A DNA stretch of 64,000 nt. It comes from an uncultured Pseudomonadota bacterium (GTDB taxonomy: Bacteria; Pseudomonadota; Alphaproteobacteria; RF32; CAG-239). Shown piece by piece: positions 289 through 6,206 of the stretch. The number at the start of each line of letters is the position of its first letter. Within the stretch, counting starts at the first letter, position 1. The notes beneath the pieces are model-generated. The model saw only the letters and a list, made by a program, of their open reading frames with translations. It did no database searches and was not told the origin of the DNA. Both the position numbers and the translations under genes were made by a program. The stretch covers positions 4,309 through 68,308 of the forward strand of contig CADAAN010000006.1 of NCBI GenBank assembly GCA_902785935.1, given 5' to 3'.

Positions 289-1476
289 ATGGTAATGAAA
301 AAAATATACTATACAGGAAAAGGTGGGGCTTTTAGGCTTTTTGTGGCAGAAAACAAAACTGACATCTGTGTTGTCGATTTTAAAAATGCATTAACAAAGA
401 CAGAACAAATTTTTATTGAAGAATATGCCTCTAAAATAGGATTAAGAAATAATTTACGACCTTTCCAAAATTTAAATGGTGTATATCAACAGGAGTGGTA
501 CAAAATCACAAAGCATTTTCTTAAACATGTTTCTCAAAATGGCGGACAAATTTCAGATATATGCGGCGATATACTAACTTTAAATGACCTCTCAAAAGCA
601 TATTTTGCTACAAAAAAAATACAAAATAAGCTTTGTTTTTATAAAATTGTACAGAAAATAAACCCAGACTATTTATTACCAAATTGGAAAATTAATAAGC
701 TAGAAAATCAAAAAAATGAATATCCACTCATTATCAAATCCTGTCAAGGAAAGGGCGGTAAAGGAAATATCGTATGCTATTCTGATTCTGATTTTGATCA
801 GTGTCATAAAATTTTAAATTCCAAGCTGTTTGCAAAAAAGCAAGAAAATGGACAATACAATACCTCAAACAAAATAATCATTGAAAAATTTTATCCCAAT
901 GCGGTCAGCTATAATTGTAGCTTTTACTGCACAAAGCAAGGAAAAATAAAATTTCAAAAGATATCACAACAAATAATTGAGGAAGTATTTTATAGAGGAA
1001 ACATTTATCCACCCCTGTTAACAAAATCACAACAGGAAGATGTTACGGAAATCAGTGAGAAAATTTGTCATATTTGCCATTCAGATTATGGATATGTTGG
1101 TTGGTTGGGTTTAGATTTTATTTTGCTTAATGATAAAATGCATATCATAGAAGCAAACCCCCGTGTCAATAGTGTTACACATGCGCATAAATTCTCCAAA
1201 GGCAATCCTTTTCTTATCAGGCTGATGCGGCATAAAGCGATGCAATTAACGGAGATTTTTGATAAATTCATTCTTAACCCTGTTACCGGATATGGAATAG
1301 TTCCTTACCAAATACCTGATAATGAAAATGTTCTTCTCCTCTCTGCAAATTCCACTTTAGAAAAAGCAGAGAATGAATTGAAAAGATTTGCTCAAGCAAA
1401 TGGACTAGAAAATGTCACTCAAGAAAATATTCTATCATTTTCTAAATCTGTTTCTTATTATTATACAAAGCTATAA
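289..1476 (+). CDS. ATP-grasp family ligase
   Basis: 395-aa ORF with the C-terminal ATP-grasp signature GWLGLDFILLNDKMHIIEANPRVN (E-x-N metal/ATP site) and a glycine-rich loop SCQGKGGKGN. Its 3' end overlaps the convergent kinase gene by 35 nt. Confidence 0.75.
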   Translation: MVMKKIYYTGKGGAFRLFVAENKTDICVVDFKNALTKTEQIFIEEYASKIGLRNNLRPFQNLNGVYQQEWYKITKHFLKHVSQNGGQISDICGDILTLNDLSKAYFATKKIQNKLCFYKIVQKINPDYLLPNWKINKLENQKNEYPLIIKSCQGKGGKGNIVCYSDSDFDQCHKILNSKLFAKKQENGQYNTSNKIIIEKFYPNAVSYNCSFYCTKQGKIKFQKISQQIIEEVFYRGNIYPPLLTKSQQEDVTEISEKICHICHSDYGYVGWLGLDFILLNDKMHIIEANPRVNSVTHAHKFSKGNPFLIRLMRHKAMQLTEIFDKFILNPVTGYGIVPYQIPDNENVLLLSANSTLEKAENELKRFAQANGLENVTQENILSFSKSVSYYYTKL

Positions 1477-2155
1477 TAATTTCTGAAATACTTTGCTTAA
1501 CAATCGGATTTACATACTTTTTCTTCTGTCCGTTCATAAGAATTGTATTTTGTAACTCTTGATATAGGTTTTTGGAATTTATACCTAAAGTATTTGAAAT
1601 TTTTTCACTCCAGATATTAAGGGGCATTTCTCTGGTGAGGTGTAAATCAATATGTTCCCGTATAAAACGTGGATTTAAAAGCTTGTTTTTAATATGTTGT
1701 GTATAGAAAGTTATCCTCTTCTTACGATTTTCTTCGTCAAAATATTTTTTAAACTGCCGAGGAAGTTCTTGAACTTCTTCAGCATACTTTCCTTTGAATG
1801 ATAATAAAATATTCTTAAATTCAATTTTAGGATACGATTGAGATATTTGAGAAATCATCTCTATTTCATCAGTTCCGTTAATACAAAAAGCATATAGACT
1901 ATCTGAGATAATAAAATTTTCAACATCTTTCTTGCGAATTCCATAAGTTACTTCTTTATTGTACAAAAACAACTGATCAGGATGAAGTGATTGTTCATGA
2001 ACAATATATCTTTCCTCGTCATCTGATCGAATAGGCCGACTCGTTACTTGCGGAATAATAAAAATATTTGGATCTGACACACTTATTGCTTTTAAAAGTG
2101 TGCTCTTTCCGACACAGGACGTTCCCGTAATGGATATAAAGTACTTTTTATCCAT
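1442..2155 (-). CDS. P-loop kinase, guanylate-kinase-like
   Basis: Walker A motif GTSCVGKST, followed by a guanylate-kinase-like segment QVTSRPIRSDDEERY. Overlaps the upstream Nudix gene by 8 nt (translational coupling). Confidence 0.65.
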   Translation of the reverse strand: MDKKYFISITGTSCVGKSTLLKAISVSDPNIFIIPQVTSRPIRSDDEERYIVHEQSLHPDQLFLYNKEVTYGIRKKDVENFIISDSLYAFCINGTDEIEMISQISQSYPKIEFKNILLSFKGKYAEEVQELPRQFKKYFDEENRKKRITFYTQHIKNKLLNPRFIREHIDLHLTREMPLNIWSEKISNTLGINSKNLYQELQNTILMNGQKKKYVNPIVKQSISEIIIALYNNKKQI

Positions 2156-2576
2156 GGGCTTTTACACTAATTATCACAAAAGGAGTTGCATTGCATGACG
2201 TTAAGTCTTGTTTAAGAATCCATAATGCACCATTTGAATCTAAATCTGAAATATTTATATTCGGCTCTCCTTGTACTTGACAATCAAAAAGTATACCGGT
2301 ATGAATTAAACAGCCTGGCCTTCCATCATCTTCTGTAAAGTCCTCAAATCGTACAATTTCTTCTTTACGCGAGGTACAATCGACAAGTTTACAGCCTGTT
2401 TCTTCCATAATTTCTCGTCTTAATGTTTCAAGTTCCGTTTCTCCTTCTTCTGGAGATCCTCCCGGTAAATCATACATCCCAGTATAAGGCCCTCTTTTTT
2501 TTCTAATAAGTAATACCTTATTATTTTTTTCAATATACCCATATATTCCCTTATGTGTTCTAGTTATTTCTCTCAC
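2148..2576 (-). CDS. Nudix hydrolase
   Basis: Canonical Nudix box GGSPEEGETELETLRREIMEETG in a 142-aa protein. Confidence 0.85.
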   Translation of the reverse strand: MREITRTHKGIYGYIEKNNKVLLIRKKRGPYTGMYDLPGGSPEEGETELETLRREIMEETGCKLVDCTSRKEEIVRFEDFTEDDGRPGCLIHTGILFDCQVQGEPNINISDLDSNGALWILKQDLTSCNATPFVIISVKAHG

Positions 2577-4768: not shown

Positions 4769-4880
4769 TTAATTCTCCAATCTTAATATGAAGATTAACT
4801 AATTCATATAAGAAAACAATTTTTTATTGACATTTATCCCGAAAATTGTATACGTTATTCTCCAAATAATGGAGATATTA

Positions 4881-6206
4881 ATGACTTTTTCATGTGGAAT
4901 TGACTTTGGAACAACAAATACTGCAGCAGCTCTATCGACAAGTAAAACCGAACCTACACTTATTCATTTAGAAGGTGATAGCGTAATAATCCCTAGTGCA
5001 CTATTTATCGGTATAGATAAAAAGATATATTTTGGCAAACAGGCAATGCAGTTGTATATGAATGGTGAAAACGGCCGTTGTATGCGTAGTTTGAAACGTG
5101 TGCTAGGTACAGATTTAATGATGTCTGGTACATATTTTAATAATAACAAAATTTCCTTTTCCGAACTTTTAAGTTGCTTTTTGAAAAACATAAAAAATAA
5201 AATTGATCTAGCGGCTGAAGCAAATGTTGACAGTGTTGTCTTAGGTAGACCTGTCCATTTTCAAGATAATAATCCGAACAGTGATATGCGTGCTGAAAAT
5301 GAACTGAGGCAAATAGCACAAAAAGCCGGCTTTAAAAATATAGAATTTCAATACGAACCGATTGCGGCCGCGTTTGCTCATGAATCAAAAATTACCGAAG
5401 AAAGTTTGGCTTGTGTTATTGATATTGGTGGTGGTACTTCCGATTTTTCAATTATTAAAATCGGACAACCACTTATGTTAAAAGTTGATAGAACAGATGA
5501 TATCCTTTCAAGCGTCGGTATTCGTATAGGAGGTAATGATTTTGATAAAGATTTGTCTTTGAAAGCATTCATGCCGGTATTTGGTTATCAAACACTACAA
5601 GGTGGACAAACACCTTACGATAAAGTCATGACTTTACCCACAATACCATTCAGAACAATGGCAGAATGGAGTTCTATCAACTCAATGTACACATATAAAG
5701 AACTTAATTTTGCAAAAAAAATGTTATTCAATGCTCAAGAAAAAGAAAAACTTCAGCGTTTTGTAGAATTAATTGAAAAGCAAAAAGGGTATTCCCTATT
5801 AAATACGGTTGAAAAAACAAAAATAAAATTAACTGAACAGTGCAAAATAAACGTACCATTGAATTTTATTTCTGATAAACCAGTTGTTCCTGTGTCAAGA
5901 CAAAATCTTAATGAATCTATAGAATTAGATGTCGCCCGTATTTTTAAGAAAGTAGATGAATGCTTTAGTCAAGCCGGCATCAAACCTGATGATATACAAT
6001 ATGTTATTTTGACTGGTGGTTCTACAGAAATCCCTTTAATTCAGAATATTGTTTCTCGTTATTTTCCGAATGCCGTTTTATCTCAAGACAACAAATTCTC
6101 TAGCGTAAGTATAGGTTTAACATACGACGGCATGCGAAGATTTTCAAAAAGAGAATCTTCTAAAGGATGTATGGTAGGTTCTCATACAGGATATTTAGGA
6201 CGATAG
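4881..6206 (+). CDS. Hsp70-family actin-like ATPase lacking a substrate-binding domain (YegD-like)
   Basis: Motifs GIDFGTTNT, IDIGGGTSDFS and ILTGGSTEIP. I chose the start at ATG 4881, which has GGAG 6 nt upstream. The track's TTG at 4827 coincides with a TTGACA -35-like box. Confidence 0.8.
   Translation: MTFSCGIDFGTTNTAAALSTSKTEPTLIHLEGDSVIIPSALFIGIDKKIYFGKQAMQLYMNGENGRCMRSLKRVLGTDLMMSGTYFNNNKISFSELLSCFLKNIKNKIDLAAEANVDSVVLGRPVHFQDNNPNSDMRAENELRQIAQKAGFKNIEFQYEPIAAAFAHESKITEESLACVIDIGGGTSDFSIIKIGQPLMLKVDRTDDILSSVGIRIGGNDFDKDLSLKAFMPVFGYQTLQGGQTPYDKVMTLPTIPFRTMAEWSSINSMYTYKELNFAKKMLFNAQEKEKLQRFVELIEKQKGYSLLNTVEKTKIKLTEQCKINVPLNFISDKPVVPVSRQNLNESIELDVARIFKKVDECFSQAGIKPDDIQYVILTGGSTEIPLIQNIVSRYFPNAVLSQDNKFSSVSIGLTYDGMRRFSKRESSKGCMVGSHTGYLGR

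Follow-up and report, generated by a model that had tools for sequence, protein, structure and literature searches.

The region analyzed here is a 64,000-bp stretch (the window) of contig CADAAN010000006.1, from an uncultured alphaproteobacterium of the GTDB lineage CAG-239 (assembly GCA_902785935.1). Near its left end lies an AT-rich block of six genes, referred to below as the cassette. The original prediction for this locus described four overlapping minus-strand genes, an ATP-grasp ligase gene converging on them and an Hsp70-like gene diverging from them. Based on the comparisons described below, we conclude with high confidence that these six genes function together as a single unit. The features of the cassette are as follows.

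222-6211: whole cassette as delimited by homology (blastn of contig L005 against contig L024; 91.7% nucleotide identity).
289-1476, plus strand: ATP-grasp carboxylate-amine ligase (395 amino acids (aa)).
1442-2155, minus strand: P-loop kinase of the guanylate-kinase fold, here called guanylate-kinase-like or GK-like (237 aa; not a Gmk orthologue).
2148-2576, minus strand: small MutT/NudI-like Nudix hydrolase (142 aa; GTG start).
2560-3546, minus strand: APH/CAK-type small-molecule kinase (328 aa).
3530-4768, minus strand: GT4-family (GT-B) glycosyltransferase (412 aa), gene 1 of the four-gene operon.
4769-4880: intergenic stretch separating the divergent GT4 and Hsp70-like genes, with presumed promoters, as read from the sequence.
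4881-6206, plus strand: YegD-like Hsp70 ATPase consisting of a nucleotide-binding domain (NBD) only (441 aa).

Recomputation recovered all six open reading frames (ORFs) at the positions first given for them (coordinates on L005, one of the identical metagenome contigs L001-L005, convert to window positions as p_window = 12156 - p_L005). Neighbouring operon genes were said to overlap by 8-17 nt and the convergent ATP-grasp and GK-like genes to share a 3' overlap of 35 nt; these overlaps measure 17, 17 and 8 nt within the operon, and that of the convergent pair measures 35 nt. The block was also described as more AT-rich than the host core, with a sample 60-mer (2581-2640) at 27% GC. This 60-mer measures 26.7% GC and the block 30.7%, compared with 40.0% for window positions 9791-64000 and 34% for the lowest 1-kb host window. 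Two of the genes have alternative starts. The longest ORF for the APH-type kinase extends to 3657, and the start at 3546 is the one used by gene callers on the identical metagenome contigs. The Hsp70-like ORF could begin at 4827 or at 4881 (ATG); the latter is more likely, as it has GGAG upstream and yields the 441-aa product called on the identical contigs. A terminator-like hairpin lies at 181-204, immediately beyond the left edge of the cassette. A promoter scan found fewer sites than in shuffled sequence and is uninformative in DNA so AT-rich. Rfam searches of positions 1-12,000 and of the whole window identified no riboswitch or RNA gene within the cassette, and a match to psRNA6 (22.7 bits against a cut-off of 60) was dismissed as chance. 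All six proteins are soluble by hydropathy: none has a membrane segment, and the 19-residue Kyte-Doolittle mean never reaches 1.6. There is no transporter or flippase gene within the cassette.

The gene set is kept in about 11 independent lineages (the identical contigs L001-L005 and ten further), at 25-98% identity and in unrelated genomic contexts. Contigs L024/L025 show 86-98% amino-acid identity to the cassette of the window, while L022/L023/L026, L016-L018/L027, L006/L007, L008-L010, L019-L021 and L011-L014 fall between 40 and 71%. A decayed copy in L030 is 46-55% identical. L028 and L029 are only 25-44% identical, and in these two the gene order is reshuffled with membership unchanged: L028 has Hsp70, ATP-grasp, Nudix and GK-like genes in that order, convergent with GT4 and the APH-type kinase, and L029 has the six genes on one strand in another order (with the Hsp70 gene cut by the contig end). 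GT4 followed by the APH-type kinase, and Nudix followed by GK-like, are pairs in every lineage that has both genes concerned. The Hsp70 gene lies immediately upstream of the ATP-grasp gene in L008, L019, L028 and L030, with an overlap of 11-17 nt in L008, L019 and L030 and a gap of 11 nt in L028. Comparison of the window with L024 gave ratios of nonsynonymous to synonymous substitution (dN/dS) of 0.08-0.28 for each of the six genes, all of which are therefore under purifying selection. Co-conservation had been named at the outset as a check on this gene set, and it holds across these lineages, including the two with altered order. The convergent ATP-grasp gene and the divergent Hsp70 gene, suspected from the beginning to belong with the operon, are integral members of the cassette.

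Gene fusions in distant relatives join the components further. An exhaustive profile search with the GK-like family against 1.84 billion representatives returned 50 proteins at E ≤ 1e-10. Among these relatives, P0060 fuses GK-like to GT4, P0068 and P0069 fuse the APH-type kinase to GK-like, P0090 and P0194 combine GK-like, ATP-grasp and GT4 parts, and P0097 joins Nudix to GK-like. The fused parts carry cassette-specific motifs: STED..VKGGIGTY, IEAPEWEG and DNFPG..IE in GT4; HGD....N, DFD and MLST(D/E)YY in the APH-type kinase; and GIYG....LPGG in Nudix. The GK-like domain is thus a fusion hub, joined across relatives to each of the other four enzymes, which argues strongly that these act in a single pathway or complex. 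No fusion to an Hsp70 domain was seen among the GK-like relatives. In a further relative, P0071 (from an alphaproteobacterial metagenome-assembled genome, MBQ4472564.1), the GK-like part is followed at residues ~225-424 by a weak, nearly full-length CYTH match (E-value: 0.0054), and this putative triphosphate-tunnel hydrolase may substitute for Nudix as the partner.

The families are extremely rare. Among 5.8 billion cluster representatives, the APH-type kinase family comprises 8 clusters, the GK-like family 13 and the ATP-grasp family 18, and where one member of the cassette occurs the others adjoin. A profile of the APH-type kinase found no true homologue in one genome for each of 185,579 species (only an unrelated APH fragment at 32% identity) and no match in INPHARED phages. 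Profiles of GK-like and GT4 found no true homologue in IMG/VR, and GK-like had no match in PLSDB plasmids. A scan of JGI metagenomes yielded four loci, all from lineages already in hand.

Comparison by blastn of the window's genome with L024 also delimits the cassette: the shared block is exactly 5,994 bp (window 222-6211), has the stop codon of Hsp70 at one end and a point shortly upstream of the ATP-grasp start at the other, and is all that the two have in common. In L024 it is flanked by accB-accC-tyrS on one side and anmK on the other, and in L006 the cassette lies between acpS and lepB-rnc-era. Its base composition is 25-35% GC irrespective of the host, including a host of 44% GC. Decay has also occurred independently in different copies. 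In L016 (8644-9583; also L017, L018 and L027, four assemblies in all), a deletion joins GT4 residues 1-183 to APH-type kinase residues 196-322, with the Nudix, GK-like, ATP-grasp and Hsp70 genes intact; L006 has lost the ATP-grasp gene; and L030 retains only Hsp70, ATP-grasp and a GK-like fragment. This combination of a patchy distribution, a foreign base composition, selection wherever a copy is present and frequent loss is characteristic of accessory cargo. The cassette had been placed in an integrase-bearing island. It does sit in one here, but by these comparisons it is self-contained and horizontally mobile on its own, independent of the integrase island.

In L024 a direct repeat of ~95-130 bp (5882-5978 and 12129-12262; 91-96% identity) flanks the cassette on both sides. 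The repeat includes the palindrome CACACCGGTGTG together with the final ~30 nt of the Hsp70 gene, and its right-hand copy extends into a degenerate and internally deleted 3' end of Hsp70. This repeat could be a trace of the mode of insertion or of an earlier copy; a direct repeat of this kind is absent from the window.

The fold assignments made at the outset agree with Pfam and NCBIfam domain calls, and all six proteins retain their catalytic motifs. The APH-type kinase scores 29.8 bits against PF01636 (cut-off 23.2). A Foldseek search, one of the checks first suggested, was run with its AlphaFold2 model (predicted local distance difference test score 88) and confirmed an APH/CAK-type fold, with top matches to AmiN (amicoumacin kinase), YtaA/CotI, NahK (N-acetylhexosamine 1-kinase), type II homoserine kinase and APH(9). 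Invariant positions include K60, the HGDxxPxN loop (H198-G-D200...N205) and FLDFD (D217-F-D219), along with a family-specific MALSTEYYC motif. The protein thus shows the gathering score, fold, catalytic Lys, HGDxxxxN loop and DFD metal site of APH/CAK kinases, and is predicted to be an active small-molecule kinase of a family that phosphorylates hydroxyls, often on sugars. The homologue in L028 matches a Kdo-kinase at an E-value of only 3.8e-4. Membership of the TCAD9 or "ternary" conflict systems was rejected, as PF19974 scores 27.7 bits (below its gathering cut-off of 40) over catalytic-loop residues 227-270 only, and the literature on this lead deals with other systems.

The GT4 protein matches PF00534 (E-value: 3.2e-17; 63 bits, cut-off 26.4). 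It has an invariant GGIGT loop, E-x-RKG (R235-K236-G237) and D321-x7-E329, so that the gathering score (PF00534/PF13692), the E-x7-E-type motif and the RKG diphosphate-binding motif are all present. The nearest solved structure is matched at only 1.6e-5, and the proteins that GT4 matches best, though weakly, are transferases of glycolipid and exopolysaccharide synthesis. A low-molecular-weight thiol pathway of the BshA/MshA type is not indicated: the deacetylase and Cys ligase of such a pathway are not in the cassette, and BshA is matched only by the GT4 of L028 (4.9e-5; 22 bits against a cut-off of 274).

GK-like has a guanylate-kinase fold with P-loop, TTRxxR and YG phosphate-binding motifs; R40, R43 and Y71 align to the TTRxxR and YG residues of a solved guanylate kinase in a weak match (E-value: 0.088). 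It is not Gmk, as TIGR03263 gives 18.8 bits against a cut-off of 160.45 and PF00625 is not reported. The Ser-containing stretch of Gmk is replaced by "PQ" and the "RxGE" of Gmk by "RxDD", and the contacts to the GMP base are not conserved. By these comparisons GK-like is a family separate from Gmk, of about 50 clusters, that keeps the Arg-x-x-Arg and Tyr-Gly phosphate clamp of nucleoside monophosphate (NMP) kinases and not the guanine contacts.

The Nudix protein (PF00293, E-value: 2e-14) is the most conserved member of the cassette (63-71% identity). Its Nudix box, G40-x5-E46-x7-R54-E55-x2-E58-E59-x-G, is intact and invariant in seven lineages; the closest solved structure is NudI (1.8e-7), and the protein is nearest to NudI and MutT. 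The ATP-grasp protein (PF02655, 6e-12) has invariant KSxxGKGGKGN and E-x-N-x-R motifs, with the ATP and Mg sites kept, and its best curated neighbours are weak matches to the amino-acid ligases LdmS (8.9e-13) and MfnD, far under the cut-offs. The Hsp70-like protein matches PF00012 (3.3e-27) and PRK11678, a "molecular chaperone" model which we take to be the YegD family (8.2e-79; 265.5 bits, cut-off 331). It is related to that family without being an equivalog, and its NBD-only architecture fits. The original prediction had called this ATPase truncated; it does comprise only an NBD, of the YegD type, but it is not a broken gene, as its ATPase motifs GIDFGTTN and DIGGGTSDF are invariant in nine lineages. 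For the cassette proteins as a whole, single-sequence and profile searches of PDB sequences gave superfamily-level matches only.

In the window, the island that surrounds the cassette also holds an integrase and an HTH/pentapeptide protein. The latter gene (6214-7152, minus strand; 312 aa, with pentapeptide repeats and a C-terminal excisionase-type HTH_17) ends 8 nt from the Hsp70 stop codon and lies outside the mobile block. Next to it are the AbiE genes (7165-7542 and 7542-8303, both minus strand). An AbiE-like module had been reported here, and AbiE is indeed present, but as a decayed remnant: AbiEi is full length (PADLOC, 8.9e-78), and AbiEii is cut down to a 125-aa C-terminal piece (model positions 175-289 of 290) that lacks the nucleotidyltransferase part. 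The island extends leftward past window position 1 on the same contig, where it holds a Shango defence system (L001 16783-20987) with a helicase, a TerB_N/TerB/TerB_C protein (SngA, 2.9e-40) and a BrxD-like ATPase (SngB, 3.1e-151). Shango is separated from the cassette by two hypothetical genes and the genes for a 145-aa ankyrin-repeat protein and an HTH-like protein.

The island ends at a 45-nt tRNA-like 3' fragment at about 9746-9790. Two such 3' ends, at 9746-9790 (...GTTCGAGCCCCCGTGCGCGTACCA) and at 9933-9951 (the shorter GCCCCCATGCGCGTACCA), are separated by about 165 bp, and a terminator hairpin follows each of them. Neither ARAGORN nor Rfam found an intact tRNA or tmRNA gene at these ends. 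They are probably the attachment site of the island and an older remnant, with the intact gene beyond the window, and would then point to repeated integration at one site.

Elsewhere, the cassette is found beside GmrSD, WYL and Zeta-toxin genes (L030), a Toprim/DUF3987 primase-type mobile element (L028), a nearby Mrr gene (L029) and a HerA/FtsK-like ATPase (L016), while glycosyltransferase genes adjoin it in L019 (GT2, GT8) and L022 (GT2, GT4, AsnB). In L011, a second, divergent Hsp70-NBD paralogue (4286-5554, plus strand; 33% identity) lies beside the cassette's own, and a truncated C-terminal fragment of an SNF2/DrmD-like helicase is found on the other flank. Other features of the window are more distant. 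Two paralogous Aas-type genes (acyltransferase plus AMP-binding; 723/724 aa) at 9998-12169 (minus strand) and 18405-20579 (plus strand) lie within 10 kb of each other, and the first directly flanks the island. A spike in GC content (52% vs 40%) at 28052-29188 (plus strand) covers a 378-aa ORF without a Pfam match; with a signal-peptide-like N-terminus and a beta-barrel-like C-terminal end, its product may be an outer-membrane protein. It is followed by genes for a BspA-type leucine-rich repeat protein (29407-30540) and a PMT_2 glycosyltransferase (30947-32410).

We tentatively favour, at a little short of an even chance, the interpretation that the cassette encodes one cytoplasmic, ATP-driven pathway leading to a nucleotide-like phosphorylated glycoconjugate. 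In this pathway, whose sequence is suggested by gene order, the three recurring pairs and the fusions, the GT4 would form a glycoside from a common nucleoside diphosphate (NDP)-sugar. The APH-type kinase would then phosphorylate a hydroxyl of the glycoside to give a monophosphate, the kind of reaction that its structural neighbours NahK, the APHs and AmiN carry out on sugars or sugar-bearing molecules. GK-like would turn this phosphomonoester into a diphosphate; the fusion of the APH-type kinase to GK-like accords especially well with one hydroxyl being phosphorylated twice in succession. The ATP-grasp enzyme would add an amino acid or amine in amide linkage, and the Nudix hydrolase would cleave the di- or triphosphate form, whether for control, for self-protection or to supply monophosphate. 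The product would be formed and retained in the cytoplasm; the cassette has neither exporter nor flippase. The Hsp70-NBD is an obligate partner, probably of the ATP-grasp enzyme, and the coupling of the two genes suggests that it assists or regulates that enzyme. The chemistry first proposed for the locus, a phosphorylated nucleotide- or sugar-derived molecule, agrees with the enzyme families found.

Several points weigh against this pathway or against a defensive purpose for it. First, every enzyme is far from its characterized relatives, with the best curated matches far under their cut-offs. Second, the order of the steps is drawn from enzyme families and gene order only. Third, the pathway leaves the constant presence of the Hsp70-NBD unexplained. 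Fourth, a Nudix hydrolase together with a diphosphate-making kinase could amount to a futile cycle unless they act on different species. Fifth, the surroundings are plain housekeeping DNA in about half of the contexts (L006, L024 with tyrS|...|anmK, and L019), and the association with defence islands is therefore weak. Sixth, PADLOC models match none of GT4, the APH-type kinase and ATP-grasp. Finally, ankyrin-repeat genes occur in two of the islands and suggest intracellular hosts, for which a host-directed role fits at least as well as an anti-phage one.

The cassette is most plausibly accessory cargo for conflict, whether with phages or with a eukaryotic host, and not part of housekeeping metabolism. 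Defence against phages is possible but on balance unlikely, and a host-directed or other accessory role is comparably likely. Of the three roles originally offered (secondary metabolite, surface-glycan decoration and anti-phage function), surface-glycan decoration is the least supported. A more specific proposal, that an amide-decorated mono- or diphosphate glycoside serves as a new nucleotide-like antiviral or host-directed effector or signal, with the Hsp70-NBD as an integral, non-chaperone component, is unlikely as a whole.

The strongest competitor to a small-molecule pathway, itself an unlikely one, is modification of a protein or other macromolecule. Here the Hsp70 domain would hold or remodel a target, the ATP-grasp enzyme would add amino acids to it (in the manner of RimK or tubulin-tyrosine ligase), the GT4 would glycosylate it, the APH-type kinase would phosphorylate the attached sugar (as proposed for CotSA/CotS), and Nudix and GK-like would handle the nucleotide by-products (NDP, NMP). 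This scheme would give the Hsp70 domain a natural role, and the Hsp70-NBD gene is coupled to the ATP-grasp gene in four lineages. Divergent copies of the ATP-grasp protein match RimK weakly (PF08443, 9.2e-5; TIGR00768, 8.2e-6), the spore-coat kinase YtaA/CotI is the second-best structural match of the APH-type kinase, and the L028 kinase matches the CotS model TIGR02906 at 4e-11. However, the Hsp70 protein has no substrate-binding domain, and the phosphate clamp of GK-like implies a small phosphomonoester as substrate. The GK-like + ATP-grasp + GT4 and the kinase + GK-like fusions are more typical of small-molecule channelling. There is also no conserved gene for a target or precursor, as the homology block contains six genes only. 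For the same reason, the block having no conserved small ORF, a reading of the cassette as a locus for a ribosomally synthesized and post-translationally modified peptide was rejected.

Less probable still is hypermodification of the nucleotide pool or of nucleic acid on the pattern of phage T4, in which Nudix would convert a nucleoside triphosphate (NTP) to the NMP, the NMP would be modified, GK-like would re-phosphorylate the modified form only, and the GT4 and APH-type kinase would decorate the base before or after incorporation. MutT/NudI-like Nudix enzymes are of the (d)NTP pyrophosphatase type and the guanylate-kinase fold is an NMP-kinase fold; moreover, the Nudix/GK-like pair is invariant, is fused in P0097 and has its Nudix part replaced by the weak CYTH match in P0071. 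Against this, neither a phage location nor a base-modifying enzyme (hydroxymethylase or transglycosylase) of the kind expected in a phage-borne cluster was found for the cassette, which also has no polymerase or restriction partner, and homologues are absent from IMG/VR (GK-like and GT4 profiles) and INPHARED (APH-type kinase). The ATP-grasp protein resembles ligases of the purine pathway, and its weak matches to PurK/PurT would favour nucleotide chemistry, but these are ordinary cross-family matches.

We regard decoration of a surface glycan or lipopolysaccharide core as distinctly improbable. Under this explanation the GT4 and the sugar kinase would act like WaaG/WaaP, Nudix would resemble the GDP-mannose hydrolase of colanic acid synthesis, and ATP-grasp would join an amino acid to a uronic acid. 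The glycosyltransferase genes beside the cassette in L019 and L022, the weak glycolipid and exopolysaccharide matches of the GT4 and a faint match of the ATP-grasp protein to a "sugar-transfer associated" ATP-grasp family are consistent with it. Nevertheless, glycan genes occur in only 2 of about 11 contexts, and the cassette has been inserted into unrelated housekeeping loci. All six proteins are soluble, with no membrane protein, flippase, polymerase or priming transferase in the cassette, so that the homology block offers none of the assembly genes of a WaaG/WaaP or surface-glycan locus, and GK-like and the Hsp70 domain would be left unexplained. The null explanation for a single locus, that unrelated cargo genes had come together by chance in an AT-rich island, was rejected as having a negligible probability, given that about 11 lineages share this set of six genes even after rearrangement, that the homology block ends exactly at these genes, that components are fused in relatives and that all six are under purifying selection.

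Should the effector or signal proposal outlined above, unlikely as it is, prove right, the cassette would be a mobile "chemical defence" module of a new class, occurring mainly in rare and probably host-associated bacteria. Elucidating the cassette would assign a function to five enzyme families that are now orphans and would probably bring to light a new phosphorylated glycoconjugate or nucleotide analogue; molecules of this kind, such as the products of viperin, are useful as antivirals and as tools. To our knowledge, NBD-only Hsp70 proteins are a class without known function, and they would gain a functional partner that can be tested. At 6 kb, with its own (presumed) divergent promoter region and no membrane parts, the cassette can be tested by transfer to a model host.

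The possibility that the genes match a known biosynthetic or defence cluster was examined with PADLOC, NCBIfam and the literature, and no described pathway or defence system was found, in line with the original prediction. PADLOC-DB v2.0.0 (2023) has 0 families for GT4, the APH-type kinase and ATP-grasp, and GK-like has only a weak match to mad8 (6.4e-4). The Nudix protein matches the PADLOC candidate PDC-S07 (3.6e-11) over residues 13-67 only, a generic part of the domain, and the Hsp70-like protein matches PDC-M61B (1.8e-14) in three short, generic stretches; with the remaining enzymes unmatched, identity with either candidate was rejected. No curated NCBIfam family reaches its cut-off for any cassette protein, and PHROGs supply fold-level names only. 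Literature searches (YegD, PDC-M61 and the enzyme combinations; subscription journals lay outside the search) found no description of the six-gene set.

Two well-known systems share part of its logic. In the cotSA-cotS operon of Bacillus subtilis, a GT4 gene is followed by that of CotS/CotI, a "bacterial spore kinase" of the APH/CAK fold, and CotSA and CotS are thought to glycosylate and then to phosphorylate the attached sugar. The cassette likewise has a GT4 gene directly followed by that of an APH/CAK-fold kinase, whose second-best Foldseek match is YtaA/CotI (2q83). It differs in that even the L028 kinase reaches only 42 bits against the TIGR02906 cut-off of 173, the hosts are not shown to be spore-forming, and the GT4-kinase pair is joined to Nudix, GK-like, ATP-grasp and Hsp70-NBD genes that are absent from the cot operon. 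The hydroxymethyl-cytosine route of phage T4 uses a dCTPase (gp56), a dNMP kinase (gp1) and GT-B DNA glucosyltransferases, and the cassette shares this logic, in which an enzyme of the NTP pyrophosphatase type is paired with an NMP kinase specific to a non-standard nucleotide and with a glycosyltransferase of the GT-B class.

Two further comparisons concern single members of the cassette. E. coli YegD is an Hsp70 NBD without a substrate-binding domain, for which a review gives no function (PMC13580251). The cassette protein shares its architecture, is clearly homologous to it (by the PRK11678 match) and keeps the ATPase motifs, but it falls short of the curated cut-off and is an obligate member of a six-gene set, its gene being often translationally coupled to that of ATP-grasp. 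Kaur et al. 2021 (PMC8195603) describe GT4 effector domains of conflict systems (PF20706), which occur as fusions with STAND NTPases and related modules. The cassette likewise places a GT4-family enzyme on mobile or defence-type DNA; in contrast to the published systems, this enzyme is coupled to kinases, Nudix, ATP-grasp and Hsp70. Because the window GT4 has no match to PF20706 at E ≤ 0.01 (only 0.07 for the fused relative P0194) and the published systems differ, identity with these GT4 conflict systems was rejected. Based on these comparisons, no described system corresponds to the cassette, a mobile set of six enzymes whose folds are familiar but whose families are orphans.

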